A stretch of DNA of 64,000 bases from Nitrosopumilus sp. GTDB taxonomy: Archaea > Thermoproteota > Nitrososphaeria > Nitrososphaerales > Nitrosopumilaceae. The translations under genes and the position numbers were made by a program. The stretch is from positions 864,001-928,000 of the forward strand of contig CBDBLO010000002.1 in NCBI GenBank assembly GCA_965207075.1, given 5' to 3'. Under the pieces are notes generated by a model. That model saw only the letters and a program-made list of their open reading frames with translations, did no database searches and was not told the DNA's origin. Below, in pieces: positions 11,728-41,352 of this stretch. Each line of letters opens with the position of its first letter. Positions within the stretch are counted from its first letter, which is position 1.

Positions 11728-12833
11728 TATAGTCAAGAGCAAAAGTTCGTGAGCAGGCACTTGTCCTAAACGGAACCTTCATTGATCATACTAATCGGCA
11801 TACCGCATGGTCGAAACATCCAAGGAGGAATTCAAACAAGCCTACCGAAAGGAAAAGGATCCCAGGGCGGTCAAGAGGATGGCCGCGGTGAACATGGCGT
11901 ATTACAACCAGGAGAGCACGCAGCACGTGGCCGACTCGCTCATGCAGTGTCCGAACCGGGCCCTGACGTGGGTAAGGCGGTTTGAGGAGGGCGGAATAGA
12001 CGCCCTCCGGGACCTTCCCAGGAGCGGAAGGCCTCCAAGGATCGACCGCGCGACGATGGATAATATGTTGTCGGAGGCGGGGCAGTCAAAGACCACGCCG
12101 GCGAAACTCCGGCAGAAGATACGCCGGGAGGCGGGGATCATATTCCACGTGACGTACGTCAGGAAGCTCATGTGCAGGGCCGGACTCTCCGCCAAGACGG
12201 CCACCATGGTGCCCGCCAACCGCGCAGACAGCGGGACGGTAAACTCGTGGCGCCACCGGACGAAAAGGCGCACCGCACGCCTGAAAAAGGCCGGATTCGC
12301 CGTTGCGGCGATGGACGAGGCGTTCTTCATGCATAATGACGCGGTAGGTCGCAAGTACTGGCCGCCCGTGGGAACCCCGGTGAGGGTTACGCATGCGGGG
12401 GGACGCAGGAGGCTGACCGTGTTTGGCGCAGTCACGGACGACGGGAGGCAGTTCTTCAGGACGTCCACCCAGGGCTTCAACGACGGGACGTTCGTGCCGT
12501 ACGTCAGGGCCATTCTCCGCCGCTTCAAGAGAGTCGCGCTGATACTGGACGGGGCGTCGACGCACCGCTCAAGACTGACAAGGGAGGCATTTGGCGGAAA
12601 CAAGAACGTCGAGCTCATCTACCTGCCCACGGCCTCGCCGTACCTCAACGCCTCCGAACAGTGCTGGAACAGGGGAAAGAGAGATCTGATGAATTCGGAA
12701 TACTATGAGACCTTTGACGACATGCGCAAGGCCGTGTCAACGTACCTCAGAACAATACGGTTCGACCTTGACATACACAGGTACCTCAACAGAAAAGCCT
12801 CAAAGTACTCATGAACTTTGGATCGGCACTATA
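11728..12833 (+). mobile_element. IS630-family insertion sequence (coordinates include flanking TA)
   Basis: Imperfect 26-bp terminal inverted repeats tatagtcaagagcaaaagttcgtgag / tatagtgccgatccaaagttcatgag (rc), TA target duplication, transposase inside. Confidence 0.9.
11807..12814 (+). CDS. IS630-family DDE transposase
   Basis: HTH 'WVRRFEEGGIDAL.D.PRSGRPP', MDEA, LILDGA..H, LP.ASP.LN.SE..W. Confidence 0.93.
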   Translation: MVETSKEEFKQAYRKEKDPRAVKRMAAVNMAYYNQESTQHVADSLMQCPNRALTWVRRFEEGGIDALRDLPRSGRPPRIDRATMDNMLSEAGQSKTTPAKLRQKIRREAGIIFHVTYVRKLMCRAGLSAKTATMVPANRADSGTVNSWRHRTKRRTARLKKAGFAVAAMDEAFFMHNDAVGRKYWPPVGTPVRVTHAGGRRRLTVFGAVTDDGRQFFRTSTQGFNDGTFVPYVRAILRRFKRVALILDGASTHRSRLTREAFGGNKNVELIYLPTASPYLNASEQCWNRGKRDLMNSEYYETFDDMRKAVSTYLRTIRFDLDIHRYLNRKASKYS

Positions 12834-13020
12834 TTATATTTTTTACTTGATTCCTGCTCGAGTCTTTCAATCCTGCTCTCGTATTCCTTTTTCATTTTTT
12901 CAACTTTATAATTGATCTTCAAATTCTCAATTGCCACACCTGATTTACCTGATGATTGTGTGTAACTTGTGACTGAGTTATCATGACCGTATGCACTCAG
13001 GTCGGCGCATCTCACAACAC
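12834..13020 (-). pseudogene. AT-rich gene remnant between IS630 and IS66 end; possibly a tyrosine-integrase C-terminus
   Basis: Reads ...GHDNSVTSY...AIENLKI...KKEYESRIERLEQE and runs into the IS630 end. Confidence 0.3.
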
Positions 13021-13024
13021 GAAC

Positions 13025-13295
13025 GTAGGTGAAGAGCTGTTTCAGCATGCCGCAGCGATGGCGACGACAGAGGGAGTCATTGTTGCAGCCTGCCCGGACC
13101 GTTCCGCGCGCTCCGGGCAGTCGGGCGGCCTGAATATGCGCCAGTCCGGATACTCGATCATGCACTCCACCGCCGCGCGCGGGAACATGCCCAGCTTCTG
13201 GCACGTGCGCGCGACGGACACCAGCACGGAGAACACCTGGCGCCCCTCCGGCGTGGACAGCTGGCGGCGCACGTTGCGGTGCAGCACGACCCCCT
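13025..13295 (-). mobile_element. IS66-family transposase 3' remnant with probable terminal repeat
   Basis: VLHRNVRRQLSTPEGRQVFSVLVSVARTCQKLG resembles the IS66 TnpC C-terminus; GC-rich patch in AT-rich DNA; ends at GTAGGTG (IS66-like end). Confidence 0.6.
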
Positions 13296-13396
13296 AAAAC
13301 ATATTAATGAAATAAAGGTTTCAATGATTTTGAAGTAATACCGCAACATTGATTTTAATTTTTAGCAAAACTCACCACCACACAACCATCATCAAG

Positions 13397-13440
13397 AATA
13401 ATTTTAATAATTAATAATAATTAATAATAATTAATGATTG
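13397..13440. repeat. AT-rich TAATAATTAA tandem repeat
   Basis: aataattttaataattaataataattaataataattaatgattg. Confidence 0.75.
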
Positions 13441-13722
13441 AGAATTGATCGTATATTACACATGTTCACTTGGGTGATTTTAAATATTCATGTCAGGTAG
13501 GGAGCTTGGTTCACACTGTAATTTAGCGTCACAGCAGTGGTTGACACACCGACAAGGACGCGAGTGCCCTCGAATCGTACCCACCGCGTTTGCACAAGCA
13601 CTCTAGGCCGTAATGCATTTATACGTACATGTGACTTTGTGTTGCGATGGACAAATTGGGCAGTCTTGCAGTAAAAAGACTCTTGAGATTATACACTGTG
13701 CCTGAGAGACACTGCGATACCT

Positions 13723-16700
13723 GTGAGCAAAAAAGAACTAATGTACAACTTTGCGTTTTGCCCGGGAGGAGCGCACATCGCGCGGAGGTTGAATGACAGA
13801 TTGCAGGCGCTGACGTGGGTCGTAATGGCATTTGTATTGTTTACAGTTGCATATGCGCCGTCTGCGTTTGCACAGACTGTCGTGGGGGATCCGTGCAATG
13901 ATGGCAACAGTGTGGACGTCACTCCGGGACGAGTAACATACGATCTGAGCAGTATAGAATGCATGGTCGACGAGGCAGTCTCAGAAGCCTTGGAGATGTA
14001 TGAAGAACGGGGCAGTTCCTCTTTTGACGCGATTACGGCCTCTGCTGTGGATGAGCCCCCGTTTGCACCGTTTGTCATCCATGCCGATGATCTGCGTATC
14101 GTGGCAAACAGCGCCGACCCTGATTACGTGAACCGGACTGCTGAATACCTGCGCAATGCCAATACTACTCTTGAACAAGTTCTTGCCCTGCAGAACGGTG
14201 AAAAAATCTGGGTAAAGTACATCGACACCAATCCTGCGCTTGGACAGGAACAGGTAAAAGTTGCACTGTTGCTTTTACATGGTGACTATATATTCGGGGC
14301 CGGATATTATCTGCCGGACTTTGAGGTTCAGGAACTGATCGAGCAGACCGTGCGAGGGTACGAGTCTGACGGCGTGGCCACATTTGAGGACATTACTCCG
14401 GACTCGCCAAGAGTTACAGATGACCTGTACGTGTTTGTGATAAGTTACCCGAATTGGATCAGGGTGGCAGACGGTGTGGTGCCTGACCGGGTGAACAAAC
14501 CTGATACCATTCTTGACACGTCCGCTCGAACGGTTGATGACGTACGTGCGGACCTAGCGGCCAATGGCTCTACATGGGCCACGTATACGTTTCACAACCC
14601 TGCCACCGATATAATACAACTCAAGCGCACGTGGCTCTACCTACATGATGGCTATGTGTTCGGCTCTGGGTATTATCCGCATGACTCTAGGTCGCAATCG
14701 CAGGCAGAATCTGCAAAGATACAATATACTGCACACGGCACCGCTGCCTTTGGAATGATAACTCCGATGGTGCCCAATCCACTATTGACAGACTCTACCT
14801 TTGTACTGGACTCGTCAACCCTCGAGGTGGTGGCACATGCACGTTCGCCATATTTGCTAGAGACGAACTTTGCGCAACTCGCTATGGCAGACAAGCCACT
14901 GGAGAGGATCAGAGACGAACTGCAGCGTGACGAGGATGGCATCTGGGTGTGGTATATGGACTTCAACCCAGCAACTGGGACCAACCAGCTCACCCATGCA
15001 TATATCATATTATATGATGGCTACATATTCGGTGCCAGCTCTCCGCTTCCTGACATACGCGCGCAGGCGGTGATAGATGATGCAATCTACACGTACAGGA
15101 ACAATCCTGACACTGCATTTGACATTATAAATTCCGGAGCGCTCAACAGACTTGATGTCATTCCACTAGTGATCAACGGCACGCTGGTGGCGCACGGACT
15201 CCTGCCGCACTTGGTCGGAATGCCACTGGAGGGTGCGATAGAGAGGAGTACCACGCAAATTTTTGACGATCTGGAGGACGGATATTCTGCGGCCGGGCAC
15301 CTTGCATTTTTTGACCCTCTGACTGGAATAACGCAGATCACGCGCGCCCTGTATGTGTTTCATGATGGTTACTTTTTTGCCGCAACGTATACTATAGCAG
15401 ACGCCGACACTCAGTCCCAGACAGACTATGCTCGGTTTGTGTACGAATCCAACATGGAAGACGGAAAATGGAGGGATATCCTGACTCCTGATGAGCCCAT
15501 AGTGACAGATGATCTGTATTCGTTTGTAATCGACTTGGAATCGTGGACTCGGCTTGCAGACGGTGTGGTGCCAGCGCGTGTAAACCAACCTGAGACCATA
15601 CTGGATACATCCTACAGGTCGGTTGCTGACGTGCGAAGCGACCTAGAAGAGAACGGCAGGACGTGGCTGACGTACACGTTTCACAATCCTGCCACCGGGG
15701 TAGAGCAGCTAAAGCGCACGTACCTCCAGCTGCGAGACGGGCTTGTGTTTGGATCCGGCTACTATCTGCTGGACTCTGAAGTCCAGGCCGTGGCGTATTC
15801 GAGCATACTCTCATACCTTGCCTCTGGCGCGAACGTGGCGCTCGCTACCATCAACGCCATGCAGGACACACCGGTCTCGACGTATCCGTTTGTTGTAGAT
15901 CCACGCTCTGGAACGATACTGGCTCAGGGTGTAAGAGACAGCACGATCGGCACTGCCGACTGGGATGAAATCCTCAAGATACTTTCAGTGGATGAAATTT
16001 TTGCAGAGCTGCAGACCAAACCCGGCATCTGGGTCAGTTATACCCATACAGAACCCGTCAGCGGCGTGTCAGAAGTAAAGCGTACTTGGCTTGCCCATTA
16101 TAATGGATTGATATTCGGATCCGGATACTATACATCGGACATACCGGCATCTGATGCCAAGTTTGTGGTGAATAACGCGATACAGACCTATGACGCCAAC
16201 AGACAAAACGACGCGTGGATAGACATAATCACGCCTGATGAGCCGATCACGACTGACGCCCTGTATCCGTTTGTAATCGACTTGGAATCGTGGACCCGGC
16301 TTGCAGACGGTGTGATACCAGCGCGAGTAGGGCATTCTGAGACCATACTTGAAAAGTCTGGCCGCACTCTGGAAAGCGTGCGTACGGAGCTTCGCGAGCG
16401 CGGCAGCATGTGGATTTCCTATACGTTTCACAACCCTGCCACCGGAATCGAGCAGCTAAAGCACTCTTACTTGCAGCTGCACGACGGTATCGTATTCGGT
16501 TCCGGGTACTATGTACTTGACTCTCGGGTCCAGTCTGCCGTAAACGGCAAGACCATAGAGTATGAGCGCGACGGCTGGGCCGCCACCATTGCCGCCACGT
16601 CGGCAATACCTGCAGAACCAATTTCCACGTACGCCTTTATCGTTGATCCTCAGAGCGGCGCAACCCTTGCGCAGAACGTGGATCCCGTGAGAATCGGCCA

Positions 16701-17700
16701 CGTGGATGACTGGACGGCCATTACGACAACGACGAGCGCACAGTCAATACTCGATATCATTGACAAGGGGACCGGCACGTGGGTCAGTTATGACCACACC
16801 AACCCATTGACTGGCGTTTCGGAGACAAAGCGCGCCTGGCTTGTCTTGCACGACGGTATCGTGTTTGGTTCAGGATATTACACTACTGACATACCTGTAT
16901 CTGACGTGAGATTTGTGGTGAATAACGCGATACAGACCTATGACGCCAACAGACAAAACGACGCGTGGATAGACATAATCACGCCTGATGAGCCGATCAC
17001 GACTGACATCCTGTATCCGTTTGTAATCGACTTGGAATCGTGGACCCGGCTTGCAGACGGTGTGATACCAGCGCGAGTAGGGCATCCTGAGACCATACTT
17101 GAAAAGTCTGACCACACTCTGGAAAGCGTGCGTACGGAGCTTCGCGAGCGCGGCAGCATGTGGGTTGTCTACACTTTCCACAACCCTGCCACCGGAATCG
17201 AGCAGCTAAAGCACTCTTACTTGCAGCTGCACGACGGTATCGTATTCGGTTCCGGGTACTATGTACTTGACTCGCACGTCCAGTCTACCGTAAACGGCAA
17301 GACCATAGAGTATGAGCGCGACGGCAGGGCCGCCACCATTGCCGCCACGTCGGCAATACCTGCAGAACCAATTCCCACGTACGCCTTTATCGTTGATCCT
17401 CAGAGCGGCGCAACCCTTGCGCAGAACGTGGATCCCGTGAGAATCGGCCACGTGGATGACTGGACGGCCATTACGACAACGACGAGCGCACAGTCAATAC
17501 TCGATATCATTGACAAGGGGACCGGCACGTGGGTCAGTTATGACCACACCAACCCACTGACTGGAATCTTGGAGGAAAAGCGCGCCTGGCTTGTCTTGCA
17601 CGACGGTATCGTGTTTGGTTCAGGATACTACGAGTCTACTCAGATTGACATTGAGCCACTGTCATCTGGATCAACACCTGCCCCTGGGCAATGCAGGTGA
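13723..17700 (+). CDS. Secreted protein built of 10 tandem single-Cache (sCache_2-like) domains; start may be downstream
   Basis: Signal-like VVMAFVLFTVAYAPSAFA; ten ~125 aa units ending W..Y...NP.TG..Q/E.K......HDG.VFGSGYY; no C-terminal TM or output domain. Confidence 0.8.
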   Translation: MSKKELMYNFAFCPGGAHIARRLNDRLQALTWVVMAFVLFTVAYAPSAFAQTVVGDPCNDGNSVDVTPGRVTYDLSSIECMVDEAVSEALEMYEERGSSSFDAITASAVDEPPFAPFVIHADDLRIVANSADPDYVNRTAEYLRNANTTLEQVLALQNGEKIWVKYIDTNPALGQEQVKVALLLLHGDYIFGAGYYLPDFEVQELIEQTVRGYESDGVATFEDITPDSPRVTDDLYVFVISYPNWIRVADGVVPDRVNKPDTILDTSARTVDDVRADLAANGSTWATYTFHNPATDIIQLKRTWLYLHDGYVFGSGYYPHDSRSQSQAESAKIQYTAHGTAAFGMITPMVPNPLLTDSTFVLDSSTLEVVAHARSPYLLETNFAQLAMADKPLERIRDELQRDEDGIWVWYMDFNPATGTNQLTHAYIILYDGYIFGASSPLPDIRAQAVIDDAIYTYRNNPDTAFDIINSGALNRLDVIPLVINGTLVAHGLLPHLVGMPLEGAIERSTTQIFDDLEDGYSAAGHLAFFDPLTGITQITRALYVFHDGYFFAATYTIADADTQSQTDYARFVYESNMEDGKWRDILTPDEPIVTDDLYSFVIDLESWTRLADGVVPARVNQPETILDTSYRSVADVRSDLEENGRTWLTYTFHNPATGVEQLKRTYLQLRDGLVFGSGYYLLDSEVQAVAYSSILSYLASGANVALATINAMQDTPVSTYPFVVDPRSGTILAQGVRDSTIGTADWDEILKILSVDEIFAELQTKPGIWVSYTHTEPVSGVSEVKRTWLAHYNGLIFGSGYYTSDIPASDAKFVVNNAIQTYDANRQNDAWIDIITPDEPITTDALYPFVIDLESWTRLADGVIPARVGHSETILEKSGRTLESVRTELRERGSMWISYTFHNPATGIEQLKHSYLQLHDGIVFGSGYYVLDSRVQSAVNGKTIEYERDGWAATIAATSAIPAEPISTYAFIVDPQSGATLAQNVDPVRIGHVDDWTAITTTTSAQSILDIIDKGTGTWVSYDHTNPLTGVSETKRAWLVLHDGIVFGSGYYTTDIPVSDVRFVVNNAIQTYDANRQNDAWIDIITPDEPITTDILYPFVIDLESWTRLADGVIPARVGHPETILEKSDHTLESVRTELRERGSMWVVYTFHNPATGIEQLKHSYLQLHDGIVFGSGYYVLDSHVQSTVNGKTIEYERDGRAATIAATSAIPAEPIPTYAFIVDPQSGATLAQNVDPVRIGHVDDWTAITTTTSAQSILDIIDKGTGTWVSYDHTNPLTGILEEKRAWLVLHDGIVFGSGYYESTQIDIEPLSSGSTPAPGQCR
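16162..17630 (+). repeat. Near-identical 750-bp intragenic tandem duplication (two Cache domains per unit)
   Basis: 16162-16880 aligns with 16912-17630 at a fixed 750 offset with scattered substitutions. Confidence 0.95.
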
Positions 17701-17800
17701 TTTGCGTACTTTGATATGCCGCAATCGTTGATGTGCAGAACGAGACTGATGCGCAGAGCGCATGAATGTGGTATTGCAAAGTCTACTTAATGATTAAGCT

Positions 17801-18250
17801 TTGAGGAAATTCCTCAATATTGTAAATGCCGAGGGAGCAATACACTACAAGAGTACAAAAAAGTGAGAGGTGGCATCGCAGTCTGATTCCGGCACATGGC
17901 ATGCCGCACTCGTGACAGAGAAAGGGTTGGCATGTGACTGTCCATACAACCAAAAACAAAATGCCGTTTGTAAACATGCAGAGGCAGTTGAGATGCTGAT
18001 ATTGTAAAAAACATTTCAGATAAAATCAGGTGGCAAAAAAGTTGTACTGAAAGAGAATACGGATCTATAGTTATAGTGTCGTGCAAAAGTCTTGGAGCTA
18101 AAGTATGATCATGAACCAAAAGCTTATAGATCAGATAACATTACGCTGGGTATGACGAGTCTAGAAAATCTTTGCATCGAATACAGAAAGGAGAAAAACG
18201 GCGACGTAAGGATCGGGGTTCATGACCTTTTTTGCAACGGAATGATATGC
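17801..18250 (+). pseudogene. SWIM zinc-finger gene remnant (likely N-terminus of a degraded transposase)
   Basis: Frame from 17801 reads ...KSTKK*EVASQSDSGTWHAALVTEKGLACDCPYNQKQNAVCKHAEAV: CxC...CKH SWIM motif with in-frame stops. Confidence 0.6.
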
Positions 18251-18789
18251 TTGTAAAGTTATTATTTTATTTTCATATGGCTGTTTTTTATAGACCTGCT
18301 TTATCGGTTCATTCTAGTAGCCATTAGTAAACTCCTCTGACTGTGCCGGCATTGATGCGTGATCCGGACCACACCTATGATGTACGGGTTCACGTCCTCC
18401 TGAAACCGGCACCAGTCCCACACCGTATGTGCCCTTTGACCATGATGGGTTAATTCATGCCCCATAACACAGATGATCTTTTTTAGATTTGTGGGAGCAG
18501 CAACGCCATGAGCACGGCAGTACAAAAAAAGACATGCTCGGCTGTAGTAACCGGGGATCTTGAAGGGGAGGATTCGTCGACACCTGCGACGAGCTTCATG
18601 CAATATCGGAAGGCGATACATCTGGGGAAGTGATGGGAAACATGAGGGAGGCAATGGGGCCTGCAGCAGAAGAGGTGGGGGATACGATAGGCTTCAGCAT
18701 GCTCGCCATGGAACGGCGATGGCAAGGTTTCCACGGTATCTGGCAGTCAGGCGGCAGGATACTTGCAAAGGGGTTTGTCACAACCCGCA

Positions 18790-20010
18790 TCATCTGGGCC
18801 TCTGGTTCCTGTGCCTGGCGGCCGCGTCCTCGAGTGCGCTTATCATGGGAAGGCGCTTGCCTGTCAGGTACAGCACGAGGGCTCCGCCGGCGGTGCTGAT
18901 GTGGTTTATCCTGTCGGTCAGCCCCAGATTCTTTAGCGCCGAGGTCAGGTGGCCGCCGCTGACTATGGTGGTGGCCATGGAGTCCGAGACTGCCCTCAGC
19001 AGGGAGTTTGTCCCATAGCTAAAGTTCTCGTTCTCAAAGAACCCCGCAGGCCCGCTTATGAACACGGTGCCGGCGCCCGATATCAGCTTTGAATAGTACT
19101 CCACCGTCTTTGGGCCCATGTCGTACACCTTGTCCCCCCTGCTCATCTCCCTGACGTCCATCTCGACCCTCTCGCCGTCCTTGTCGATTGCCACGTCCAC
19201 GGGGGTGGCAAACACGTCGGGATACTCGCCGATCAGCGCGTGGGCCTTTGCCACTGCCTCCTCCTCGCGTATTATCCCGAGCGACGACTTTATCCTTGCC
19301 TGCGCGCGCAGGAACACGTTTCCGATGAGCCCGGTCAGCAGTATGTGGTCGGCCCTGCCGTTCTCTATCAGCATCTTTATGGCCTCGAGCCTGTCGGGCA
19401 CCTTTGAGCCCCCCAGCACGATCACGTGGGGGGCCTTTGCCACCGTCATTATGTTGTCAAGGTTCTGGACCTCGCGCTCCACAATCCTGCCGGCGCACGC
19501 CGGCAGCACGTGGGGAAAGCCCACAATAGACGGATGCTGCCTGTGCGCGCTCGGAAACGAGTCCATGACGCACGCGTCGAACAGCTTTGAGAGCCTGGAG
19601 ACCATTATCGTCTTGGCGGCGGCCTCGGGGGGAAACTCATAGTTCTCCTCCGCGCAGAACCTGAGGTTGTCAAGCAGTATGATGTCGCCATCTTTCATGC
19701 CGCGTATCTCGTTTTGGGCCGCCACCCCCATCACGTCCTCCACGTATTTGATGCTGCGGCCGGTCACCTTCTGGAGCACCTCCGCATGGCTTGACATTCC
19801 GGTATAGTCGTTGTTGCCCACCCTTCCCTGATGGGATGCGATCACCACCTTTGCATCCTGCAGCGACTTTAGGCTGGCCGCCGCCTCCTCTATCCGTTTT
19901 GTGCCTAGGATCTCCATTGTGTTGGGGTCGATGGGGCAGTTTATGTCGACCCTCAGGAGCACGGTCTTGCCCCTGAGGTCAAAGTCATCAAGTGTGAGGA
20001 CACTCTTCAC
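18790..20010 (-). CDS. pgk: Phosphoglycerate kinase
   Basis: LLRVDINCP, SHQGR, LLDNLRF, AHR, LGGSKV, SGPAG.FE, HISTAGGA; GTG start at 20010 likely. Confidence 0.97.
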   Translation of the reverse strand: MKSVLTLDDFDLRGKTVLLRVDINCPIDPNTMEILGTKRIEEAAASLKSLQDAKVVIASHQGRVGNNDYTGMSSHAEVLQKVTGRSIKYVEDVMGVAAQNEIRGMKDGDIILLDNLRFCAEENYEFPPEAAAKTIMVSRLSKLFDACVMDSFPSAHRQHPSIVGFPHVLPACAGRIVEREVQNLDNIMTVAKAPHVIVLGGSKVPDRLEAIKMLIENGRADHILLTGLIGNVFLRAQARIKSSLGIIREEEAVAKAHALIGEYPDVFATPVDVAIDKDGERVEMDVREMSRGDKVYDMGPKTVEYYSKLISGAGTVFISGPAGFFENENFSYGTNSLLRAVSDSMATTIVSGGHLTSALKNLGLTDRINHISTAGGALVLYLTGKRLPMISALEDAAARHRNQRPR

Positions 20011-40222: not shown

Positions 40223-40446
40223 GCAGGGGGGCAGTGCACCCCCCCAGCGTACGCTGCAGACTGATGCGCCACACGCAACCAAAAACCGGAGACTTGCCGC
40301 CGGACATGCCACAATTGCGGCAGAAACGGACCCGCCCATCGCCTAAAGCCCGCTTAATTGTCCATAAAATTGGGGCGCGGCTTACAAGAGTTGGACAGCG
40401 CCAACGCGCACAAACAAGTTATAAGCTGTTTGTACCGGTATTCGTC

Positions 40447-41352
40447 ATGGTAGTGACGGCGGCCGCATCCCCGGCGCTGTTCGCAGTGACCGCCGTCGGA
40501 CTGCTGGTGGCCGTTGGATACGCACCGGCCTGGCCGTCGGCCGCCCACCACGCGTACGCGGACACCCTGGCGGTCCAGATCCCAGACACGGCCGCCGGCA
40601 GCCCGTTTACGCTGGGCGCGTCGGATACCGGCACCATCGGCACGTTCTACTTTGACGCGTCGTTTGAAGGAACAACAACCCCGATCTCGACTGAATACGG
40701 CGACTACTACTGCATAGGATGGGAGGCGCGATGCCAGGGACTGCAGGATGACAGCGTGCCGATAATTGTGTTTCTGGAGGATGACGAGGGGCGCGACGCG
40801 CTCGTCAACTTTACGGTCATGCAGAGGGTGCTGGGCGACGAGAACATCGGCCCGTCAAACACCGTCAGCGTATCTGAGTCCGATAACATCGCAGTGCTTC
40901 CGGAGCCTCCGGGGGACTTTGGAGCCGTGACTCACATCGCCATTGACTTTAGAATCGACGCCAAGTCGTTCAAGGAGGCCCTGGTGACGGATCCGGACTT
41001 TGAGGGGCGCCACGTGTTCAACTACGACTTTAGGTCCCTGCAGCTGGGGGACGACGCGCACCCCCTCTTTTCCATAATAAGCGCCGACGGCCCCATAGGG
41101 CCCGACATCGACGGGTACTATGCGCACTCCATCCTGGACTCCCCCCTGACGGAGCGCGCCGGGACGATTCAGATACCACACAGGCACGTGCTGGCGCTAG
41201 ACCAAATAGACGACGACAGGAACATCGGGGTGATAATCGGTTTTGTGAACGCGGACTACACGGACTACACTCCACAGCACCTGGCCGATGCCGACATGCC
41301 CATAGCGTTCAACGTATGGGCAGAGCCGGCGCCCCCAAGCGTGTGCCGCTGA
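40447..41352 (+). CDS. Secreted protein resembling one internal domain of the S-layer-like protein
   Basis: Signal peptide; GSPFTL, IAID, FNYDFRSL, PIAFNVW align by eye to GSPLAL, LAID, LNIDMRSL, PVVLDVF of 33981..37586. Confidence 0.6.
   Translation: MVVTAAASPALFAVTAVGLLVAVGYAPAWPSAAHHAYADTLAVQIPDTAAGSPFTLGASDTGTIGTFYFDASFEGTTTPISTEYGDYYCIGWEARCQGLQDDSVPIIVFLEDDEGRDALVNFTVMQRVLGDENIGPSNTVSVSESDNIAVLPEPPGDFGAVTHIAIDFRIDAKSFKEALVTDPDFEGRHVFNYDFRSLQLGDDAHPLFSIISADGPIGPDIDGYYAHSILDSPLTERAGTIQIPHRHVLALDQIDDDRNIGVIIGFVNADYTDYTPQHLADADMPIAFNVWAEPAPPSVCR

Follow-up and report, generated by a model that had tools for sequence, protein, structure and literature searches.

The 64,000-nucleotide stretch analysed here (the window), from contig CBDBLO010000002.1 of the ammonia-oxidising archaeon Nitrosopumilus sp., carries on its forward strand, at 13723-17700, a gene for a predicted exported protein with ten tandem Cache domains and no transmitter. 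We read this ten-Cache protein as a multivalent array of ligand-binding units that is tethered to the cell surface and helps to capture solutes; it would not be a sensor and is probably not free-floating, and the probability of this reading was put at about 45%. In the proposed mechanism, ten sCache_2-like small-molecule-binding modules would be exported as one chain and probably tethered to the surface of a sponge-associated Nitrosopumilaceae archaeon. There the array would act as an “antenna” that holds small solutes, functionally associated with ATP-binding cassette (ABC)-type uptake systems and not with signalling, and each of its two unit types, A and B, has a strictly conserved pocket signature of its own. 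Cache domains are regarded as the input modules of receptors. The whole family of this protein uses them with no transmitter attached, in arrays that reach 16 units, and 38 of these units are found in the present genome, where signalling machinery is nearly absent. If solutes are bound by the pockets, the arrays would give a cell that lacks a periplasm a new means of gathering substrates, and they would also be relevant to the use of host metabolites by archaeal symbionts.

Repeat units, predicted fold and candidate pockets

The gene was read as a single open reading frame (ORF) of 1325 residues from the GTG at 13723, and an identical protein in public records (P0122) starts at the ATG at 13741 and has 1319 residues. 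A Kyte-Doolittle scan of all 1325 residues revealed one hydrophobic segment, at residues ~27-45, and no second transmembrane-like segment. This segment forms the core of a predicted signal peptide (residues 1-50; 13723-13872) with an RR-containing n-region and the sequence A-F-A at residues 48-50 before the predicted cleavage between A50 and Q51, which fits a signal peptidase I site. The hydrophobic segment and the A-F-A motif predicted an extracytoplasmic location, and the frame and the scan agreed with an earlier note on this DNA, which had described a signal peptide and no second transmembrane helix. A short mature N-terminal segment (residues 51-74; 13873-13944) that contains Cys58 leads into the first repeat, at whose start Cys80 is located.

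The ten tandem repeats of 114-127 residues (~123) occupied residues 75-1304. The earlier note had seen the signature W..Y...NP.TG...K......G.GYY in ten repeats; ten units were indeed present, and nine of them carried the signature, while R4 was degenerate (...FFAATY). Its two alternating subtypes were recovered as type A (R2, R5, R7, and R9), with 49-92% identity among the units, and type B (R6, R8, and R10), with 38-93% identity, whereas A and B units were only 30-39% identical to each other. R1, R3, and R4 were divergent and fell outside both types. The divergent R1 (residues 75-197; 13945-14313) was followed by R2 (198-319; 14314-14679), R3 (320-442; 14680-15048), R4 (443-556; 15049-15390), R5 (557-682; 15391-15768), and R6 (683-804; 15769-16134), and then by two A-B di-units, R7-R8 (805-1054; 16135-16884, with R7 at 805-931 and R8 at 932-1054) and R9-R10 (1055-1304; 16885-17634, with R9 at 1055-1181 and R10 at 1182-1304). 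The second di-unit was a recent 750-bp tandem duplicate of the first, with 95.1% nucleotide identity and a ratio of nonsynonymous to synonymous substitution rates (dN/dS) of ~0.5.

The Pfam check that had been proposed was run on the whole protein and placed it above the cut-offs for both dCache_2 (38.1 bits, cut-off 26.5) and sCache_2 (27.0 bits, cut-off 25), so that by gathering score it belonged to the Cache superfamily as an sCache_2-like member (PF17200 / PF08269); the Cache scores of its paralogs were 36-70 bits. In the same search, the protein had no match to HAMP, kinase, or methyl-accepting chemotaxis protein (MCP) domains, to VWA, or to the solute-binding protein (SBP) families SBP_bac_3, SBP_bac_5, Peripla_BP_6, and NMT1, and NCBIfam gave no meaningful match. 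Pfam and the hydrophobicity scan together thus confirmed that the protein had no second transmembrane helix and no HAMP, kinase, or MCP domain. For structure prediction, 65 A-B di-units from the window, its paralogs, and related metagenome-assembled genome (MAG) loci were aligned, and the AlphaFold2 model of the R7-R8 di-unit, which starts from position 16144, reached a mean predicted local distance difference test (pLDDT) score of 95.8 and a predicted template modelling (pTM) score of 0.86. Each modelled unit consisted of two helices, two strands, short helices, and three strands (H-H-E-E-H-H-E-E-E), corresponding to the PAS-like fold of the Cache superfamily. In a comparison with 48161 solved chains, made with a method independent of Foldseek, the top match of the di-unit model was 4k08 (Z 12.0, root mean square deviation 2.8 over 118 residues, 21% identity), followed by 4exo (Z 11.4) and other Cache/PDC sensor domains, and the best match of unit B was 4zr7 (Z 10.1). 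Foldseek agreed and listed 5g4y, 4k08, and 4exo with target-normalised TM scores of 0.57-0.62. The Cache fold suggested by the repeat signature was therefore supported by the model, whose best matches 4k08 and 4exo are sCache_2 domains.

Passages of PMC5062169 describe the carboxylate in the sensor domain of PscD as held by Tyr90, His103, Tyr143, and Lys156, between Trp92 and Trp145. The candidate pocket of the modelled unit was mapped by secondary-structure register with the PscD residue ranges in those passages and not by superposition, so that the His equivalent is uncertain by 1-2 residues. By this register, the counterparts of Tyr90, Trp92, Tyr143, Trp145, and Lys156 were Y41, F43, Y93, F95, and K106, and His103 fell at about position 54/55. 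The five assigned residues were invariant or at least 90% conserved across the 65 di-units and were among the most conserved columns. In 495 unique units, Tyr41 was present in 367, Tyr93 in 390, and Lys106 in 370, and position 55 was occupied by His in 258, Asp in 82, and Gln in 60. The signatures of the ordinal units were then compared in 25 proteins of six, eight, or ten units. All A-type and all B-type units had Lys at position 106 (42/42 each), with Asp at the candidate His position in 32 of the 42 A-type units and Gln in 39 of the 42 B-type units; unit 2 was mostly Y/H/Y/K, and unit 3 had Thr in place of Lys at position 106 in 22 of the 25 proteins. Because each ordinal unit kept its own signature across proteins, the pattern fits constrained pockets with different specificities, and the predicted pockets read as a few fixed, constrained kinds and not as the canonical carboxylate site. 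In the window protein, the four positions were Y/D/Y/K in type A units such as R2 and R5 and Y/Q/Y/K in type B units such as R6, giving seven units with Y-[D/Q]-Y-K, and were more degenerate in R1 (A/N/Y/K), R3 (S/H/Y/T), and R4 (I/H/L/T), the last being the most degenerate of all. By register, Asp or Gln at the candidate His position separated the protein from the carboxylate-binding sCache_2 subgroup (PscD / McpP / Adeh_3718). Type A units, with Asp plus Lys in the pocket, might be better suited to uncharged or cationic nitrogen compounds than to carboxylates. The urea-binding domain of TlpB depends on an Asp, although a literature search gave no confirmation of this.

Relatives, fusion partners and distribution

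The ten-Cache protein had been described as standing alone, and our results showed instead that it belongs to a large family. The genome (2.23 Mb, 95% complete) contained 38 Cache units across five genes: the window gene and two ten-unit paralogs (L001:6153-10052 and L002:6064-10011), all three ending in Cys-Arg (-CR), a gene with four Cache units and a C-terminal SBP_bac_3 domain (L003:5959-8778, plus strand), and a gene with four Cache units and a C-terminal NMT1/THI5 domain (L004:2157-8753, equal to G000:C2 ~1303157-1309753, minus strand), the last two domains being assigned by Pfam. A word-index search found 193 relatives of near length, and a profile search of a metagenome library clustered at 50% identity found 1027 representative clusters at E ≤ 0.001, of which 151 were at E ≤ 1e-30. 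The relatives held 1 to 16 units per protein, and PF27194 appeared among their precomputed domains. The window gene formed a fourth lineage of ten-unit genes that was 57-63% identical to the others, two of which were represented by orthologous pairs (L001/L010 and L002/L008) with 91-92% identity between this genome and a related MAG. When every unit was classed as A-like or B-like, the patterns AAAAAB, AAAAABAB, and AAAAABABAB recurred in proteins of six, eight, and ten units, respectively, which indicates a conserved six-unit core and growth by A-B pairs at the C-terminal end. The old core would consist of four divergent N-terminal units and one A-B pair, to which successive duplications of the A-B di-unit at the C-terminal end would have added length.

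No transmitter family was found by Pfam among the 120 near-length relatives listed of the 193. A hydrophobic 19-mer past residue 70 was present in 8 of 282 relatives scanned, and only 3 of the 282 had a C-terminal hydrophobic segment, which was terminal and followed by a short basic tail with no domain beyond it; in most relatives, only a few residues followed the last G.GYY. The window protein itself had neither the second transmembrane helix nor the transmitter of a Cache-type transmembrane receptor. The idea that the gene encodes a truncated receptor, which the earlier note had named as a finding that would refute its own reading, was rejected on these grounds: no transmitter in the listed relatives, no second transmembrane segment, and no domain after the C-terminal segments. 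The proposed survey of the architecture, made across Nitrosopumilaceae genomes, showed that it recurs, in a patchy manner and without a transmitter among the relatives listed.

Of the other domains fused to members of the family, those for solute binding were the commonest. Among 38 relatives chosen for extra non-repeat length and submitted to Pfam, SBP_bac_3 was found in 11, ANF_receptor/Peripla_BP_6 in 4, and SBP_bac_5 in 3; further partners were VCPO-like, DUF285, Ig-like, and 5'-nucleotidase domains, and no transmitter was present among the 25 families listed of 40. The L004 gene, which encodes four Cache units and NMT1, was located directly upstream of, and on the same strand as, two BPD_transp_1 permease genes, a layout that suggests an ABC uptake operon with a Cache array on its binding protein. 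A 172-residue ORF lies between the L004 gene and the permease genes, both of which have long N-terminal extensions. The L003 gene has homocitrate-synthase-like and aminotransferase class IV genes as neighbours and no adjoining permease. The suggestion of a solute-binding antenna in the earlier note thus gained support from the fusions to solute-binding domains in relatives and in two paralogs, and since fusion to nutrient-uptake binding proteins is frequent, solute capture at the surface is likelier than sensing.

All of the best 80 matches in species-representative genomes (76 loci) came from Nitrosopumilaceae or Nitrososphaerales MAGs, with Nitrosopumilus sp., Cenarchaeum sp., and Thaumarchaeota isolate TS as the named sources. 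The family was present in 4 of 24 genomes of the same genus and in 24 of 200 other Nitrosopumilaceae genomes (at least 80% complete), and none of 16 genomes from the order's remaining families had a match. The matches were concentrated in few genera (10/10 in g33 and 4/4 in g29), and four genera with 20-22 sampled genomes had none. In a first look, 81-112 candidate Cache units were counted in three genomes of genus g33 (G163, G155, and G102), two to three times the number in this genome. Arrays outside Nitrosopumilaceae are suggested only by the lipoprotein-like signal peptides of P0116 and P0134. Passages of PMC7848895 report an enrichment of Cache Pfams in some Thaumarchaeota associated with sponges and propose a role in surface recognition.

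This distribution speaks for the main rival explanation, in which the protein is a structural or adhesive surface fibre whose Cache modules serve as rigid blocks or as lectin-like contacts for recognition of the sponge host or escape from being eaten, with no nutrient capture. The patchy, lineage-specific expansion, with up to 112 candidate units, the origin of named matches from sponge-type MAGs (Cenarchaeum sp. and Thaumarchaeota isolate TS), and the surface recognition proposed in print are all in line with a fibre. So are the changes in length by duplication of whole di-units, as in adhesins, the fusion of some relatives to BspA-type leucine-rich repeat (LRR; DUF285), LVIVD, PKD/Ig, or laminin-G domains, and the prediction of the A-B pair as one defined body (pTM 0.86). 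However, a buried Lys that is invariant in every one of the A and B units compared, together with unit-specific signatures, is hard to explain by scaffolding alone, and the commonest fusion partners were solute-binding and not adhesin domains. We therefore regard the fibre as unlikely, though as the strongest competitor of the ligand-binding array.

The Cys-Arg end, signalling and genomic setting

The last unit was followed by a Pro/Ser/Gly-rich tail of 21 residues (17635-17697) that ended in Cys1324-Arg1325 (codons at 17692-17697) before the TGA stop codon at 17698-17700. The tail (...SSGSTPAPGQCR, ending ...PAPGQCR) had no hydrophobic stretch, and the motif, transmembrane helix, and basic tail of a PEFG-CTERM or archaeosortase-type end were all missing. 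The earlier note was right that there is no PEFG or transmembrane anchor, but the C-terminus was not featureless, because the -CR end was common to many exported proteins of this genome. The closest relatives all ended in x-Cys-Arg and were nearly free of cysteine apart from a Cys in some signal peptides. Among 1357 non-overlapping ORFs of at least 200 residues from the whole genome, 21 ended in -CR, compared with 1.35 expected from composition, and the residue preceding the Cys was V, I, or M in 19 of the 21. An N-terminal hydrophobic segment was present in 18 of the 21, compared with 290 of the 1357 overall. The 18 CR-ended ORFs other than the ten-Cache genes comprised 17 loci (L081-L096 among them) and the ORF at 40234-41352 of the window. 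Pfam assigned 11 of these 18 to solute-binding families, the two weakest below the curated cut-off; the others were one 14-fold PKD protein, one BspA-LRR/PKD protein, one VCPO-like protein, three proteins without a Pfam match, and one cytoplasmic-looking dehydrogenase, which probably ends in -CR by chance. The ORF at 40234-41352 (plus strand) encodes 372 residues, has no Pfam match, and ends in ...PPSVCR.

In one CR-ended binding protein, all 24 of 24 homologs kept the -CR end, down to 43% identity. All three stop codons occurred after -CR, the Arg codons varied, and nothing hydrophobic was encoded downstream of the stop, from which it follows that -CR is a true, selected C-terminus. Read-through of the stop codon into a hidden anchor was rejected for the same reasons. 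The Cys of the -CR end was often the sole cysteine of the mature exported binding protein. Many signal peptides of the -CR subfamily contain a lipobox-like Cys (L-V-A-C, L-A-A-C, or F-A-L-C) 7-10 residues before the A-x-A site, as in L001:6153-10052, L002:6064-10011, and the relatives P0004-P0013; the window protein has no such Cys in its signal peptide and has Cys58 and Cys80 instead. In an archaeon that lacks an outer membrane, binding proteins have to be kept at the cell surface. Since binding proteins with -CR fall under this requirement, -CR would be a retention signal by which the ten-Cache protein is tethered, and it may be an undescribed surface-retention signal in Nitrosopumilaceae; nothing on a C-terminal cysteine anchor in these archaea was found in the literature.

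The earlier note had called the protein secreted, with a sponge or scavenger among its readings, and a freely released ligand sponge or scavenger that diffuses into the sponge mesohyl and sequesters signals of the host or of competitors would agree with the predicted signal peptide and with the lack of both a transmembrane anchor and a PEFG-CTERM end, the latter in a genome that does use PEFG-CTERM elsewhere. The protein in question (L001:13627-15423, plus strand) is an exported protein of 598 residues with no Pfam match, whose C-terminus consists of ...VPEFG, then a hydrophobic helix and then a basic tail, so that exported proteins of this genome have C-terminal ends of at least two kinds. 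Tethering is suggested instead by the conserved -CR end, which the window protein has in common with ABC solute-binding proteins; these must stay at the membrane where there is no outer membrane, and a free scavenger is improbable.

Slightly less probable again is an extracytoplasmic co-sensor that binds ligands and informs a distinct membrane protein, for example a histidine kinase or a regulatory transporter, as some SBPs do for bacterial receptors. Cache domains are classic sensor inputs, and at least two high-scoring kinase-like HATPase_c matches were present in the genome. Against this, no kinase, regulator, MCP, or HAMP gene was found beside any of the five Cache genes examined, and in the genome (95% complete), which carries 38 Cache units, searches to which control genomes did respond gave only 5 matches for HATPase_c and none for MCPsignal or HAMP. 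Ten units per protein also far exceed what sensing needs. A signalling role is accordingly unlikely.

Several results weigh against the tethered ligand-binding array. No transporter gene was found within ~9 kb of the window gene, and the protein itself lacks an SBP domain. None of the ten units had the full Tyr/His/Tyr/Lys set of carboxylate-binding sCache_2 domains, the conserved aromatic residues could be core residues, and the constraint in the recent duplicate pair was only moderate (the dN/dS of ~0.5 given above). Searches of the PDB by sequence revealed no solved relative, the best hits being unrelated proteins at E 0.88 with the ten-unit profile and 1.0 with one unit. The model of four units, which was based on an alignment of 23 sequences, was weaker (pLDDT 80.3, pTM 0.55), and for this reason no claim is made about the overall (rod) shape. 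Finally, the -CR end has no known biochemistry, and the tethering is a guess. A bolder version of the array is more doubtful than the array itself and is best taken as speculation, only a little less likely than the fibre: an expandable solute-harvesting surface organ in some sponge-associated ammonia-oxidising archaea, derived from the sensor module that is commonest in prokaryotes, in which output-less arrays of 4-16 Cache pockets with few fixed specificities would be held by an undescribed Cys-Arg tether (a lipid or covalent link on the penultimate Cys, common to ABC binding proteins) and would concentrate host-derived small molecules for ABC importers.

The neighbouring genes within ~9 kb encode SufS-like and NifU-like proteins, a DDE_3 transposase, phosphoglycerate kinase, a YjeF_N protein, a metallo-beta-lactamase-fold protein, and GlmS, in agreement with the earlier statement that no signalling gene is nearby. 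The DDE_3 / helix-turn-helix transposase gene (11807-12814, plus strand) is located directly upstream of the Cache gene, and the two are separated in part by an AT-rich intergenic region of 425 bp (13298-13722, plus strand) that was read from the sequence as a putative promoter region. A short AT-only tandem run of AATAATTAAT-like units lies near 13395-13435 (within 13380-13440) of this region. The window gene had a G+C content of 52.7%, below the 60.3% of the whole genome and the 58-60% of its paralogs, and an 8-kb stretch of low G+C content (window 12000-20000; 0.52-0.54 vs ~0.60) also holds the transposase gene. Because of this dip and the adjoining DDE_3 transposase, the window copy may have been acquired or moved. 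A repeat gene that is decaying or has no function, for which the low G+C content, the adjoining transposase, and the degenerate R4 could be cited, is barely credible, since the 3978-bp frame is intact, a conspecific record (P0003) is 98% identical across the full length of the protein, the recent duplicates show a dN/dS of 0.5 with unchanged pocket residues, and the peculiarities of R3 and R4 are family-wide, as shown by the T at position 106 of most third units.

Comparison with known systems

The closest structural counterparts of the repeats are the sCache_2 sensor domains, such as PscD-SD (5g4y), Adeh_3718 (4k08), and the Vibrio parahaemolyticus MCP (4exo). These domains have the same fold and the same order of helices and strands, and share with the window units the C-terminal W..Y...NP..G...K...G.G.Y signature and an extracytoplasmic location, which is predicted in the present case. 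The carboxylate-binding Tyr, Tyr, and Lys of PscD have conserved counterparts in the units of the Cache arrays by register, whereas His103 is replaced by Asp in type A or Gln in type B units of the window protein. A window unit is also shorter (~123 residues vs 144-147 in solved sCache_2 chains), and no PDB chain matched the window protein at the sequence level. In sCache_2 receptors, a single domain is found, whereas the window protein has ten copies in series, without flanking transmembrane helices, HAMP, or a transmitter.

The dCache domains resemble the di-unit in that two PAS-like modules are placed in one extracytoplasmic polypeptide, and the Pfam dCache_2 score was above the cut-off. 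However, one long N-terminal helix is common to both modules of a dCache domain, whereas in the model each window unit has a pair of its own (H2-18/H21-29 and H124-143/H145-153), so that the predicted di-unit lacks the shared long helix. Solved dCache chains aligned to one window unit only (model range 1-125 to 1-131). Moreover, dCache proteins run on into a transmembrane helix and an output domain, and the window protein has neither.

Solute-binding proteins of ABC systems in archaea and Gram-positive bacteria are likewise exported, retained at the surface, and bind small molecules. In this genome, the -CR end is common to them and to the Cache proteins, and in relatives and paralogs they are fused to Cache arrays. 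They differ by their Venus-flytrap fold, a domain that the window protein lacks, and no permease gene adjoins the window gene. Tandem binding domains fused to transporters exist, as in the GlnPQ type.

The earlier note knew of no example of this architecture. According to the abstracts of PMC9901441 and PMC7351808, however, the alpha2delta subunits of animal calcium channels and CACHD1 are anchored to the membrane on its extracellular side and contain several Cache modules (two dCache_1 domains) but no transmitter, and at least one pocket binds amino acids and gabapentinoids. Cache enrichment in these archaea is also in print, as described above, while the passages of PMC7848895 contain no description of the ten-Cache architecture, and other relevant literature on Cache domains in these archaea was not found. 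The Cache module itself is known; what the searchable literature does not describe is its use in expandable tandem arrays without an output, or the association of these arrays with binding proteins and the -CR end. Alpha2delta and CACHD1 belong to another Cache subfamily, contain a VWA domain, and serve as channel subunits in eukaryotes, whereas the window protein has no VWA domain. The alpha2delta subunit is thus the nearest functional analogue of the ten-Cache protein, by analogy and not by orthology.

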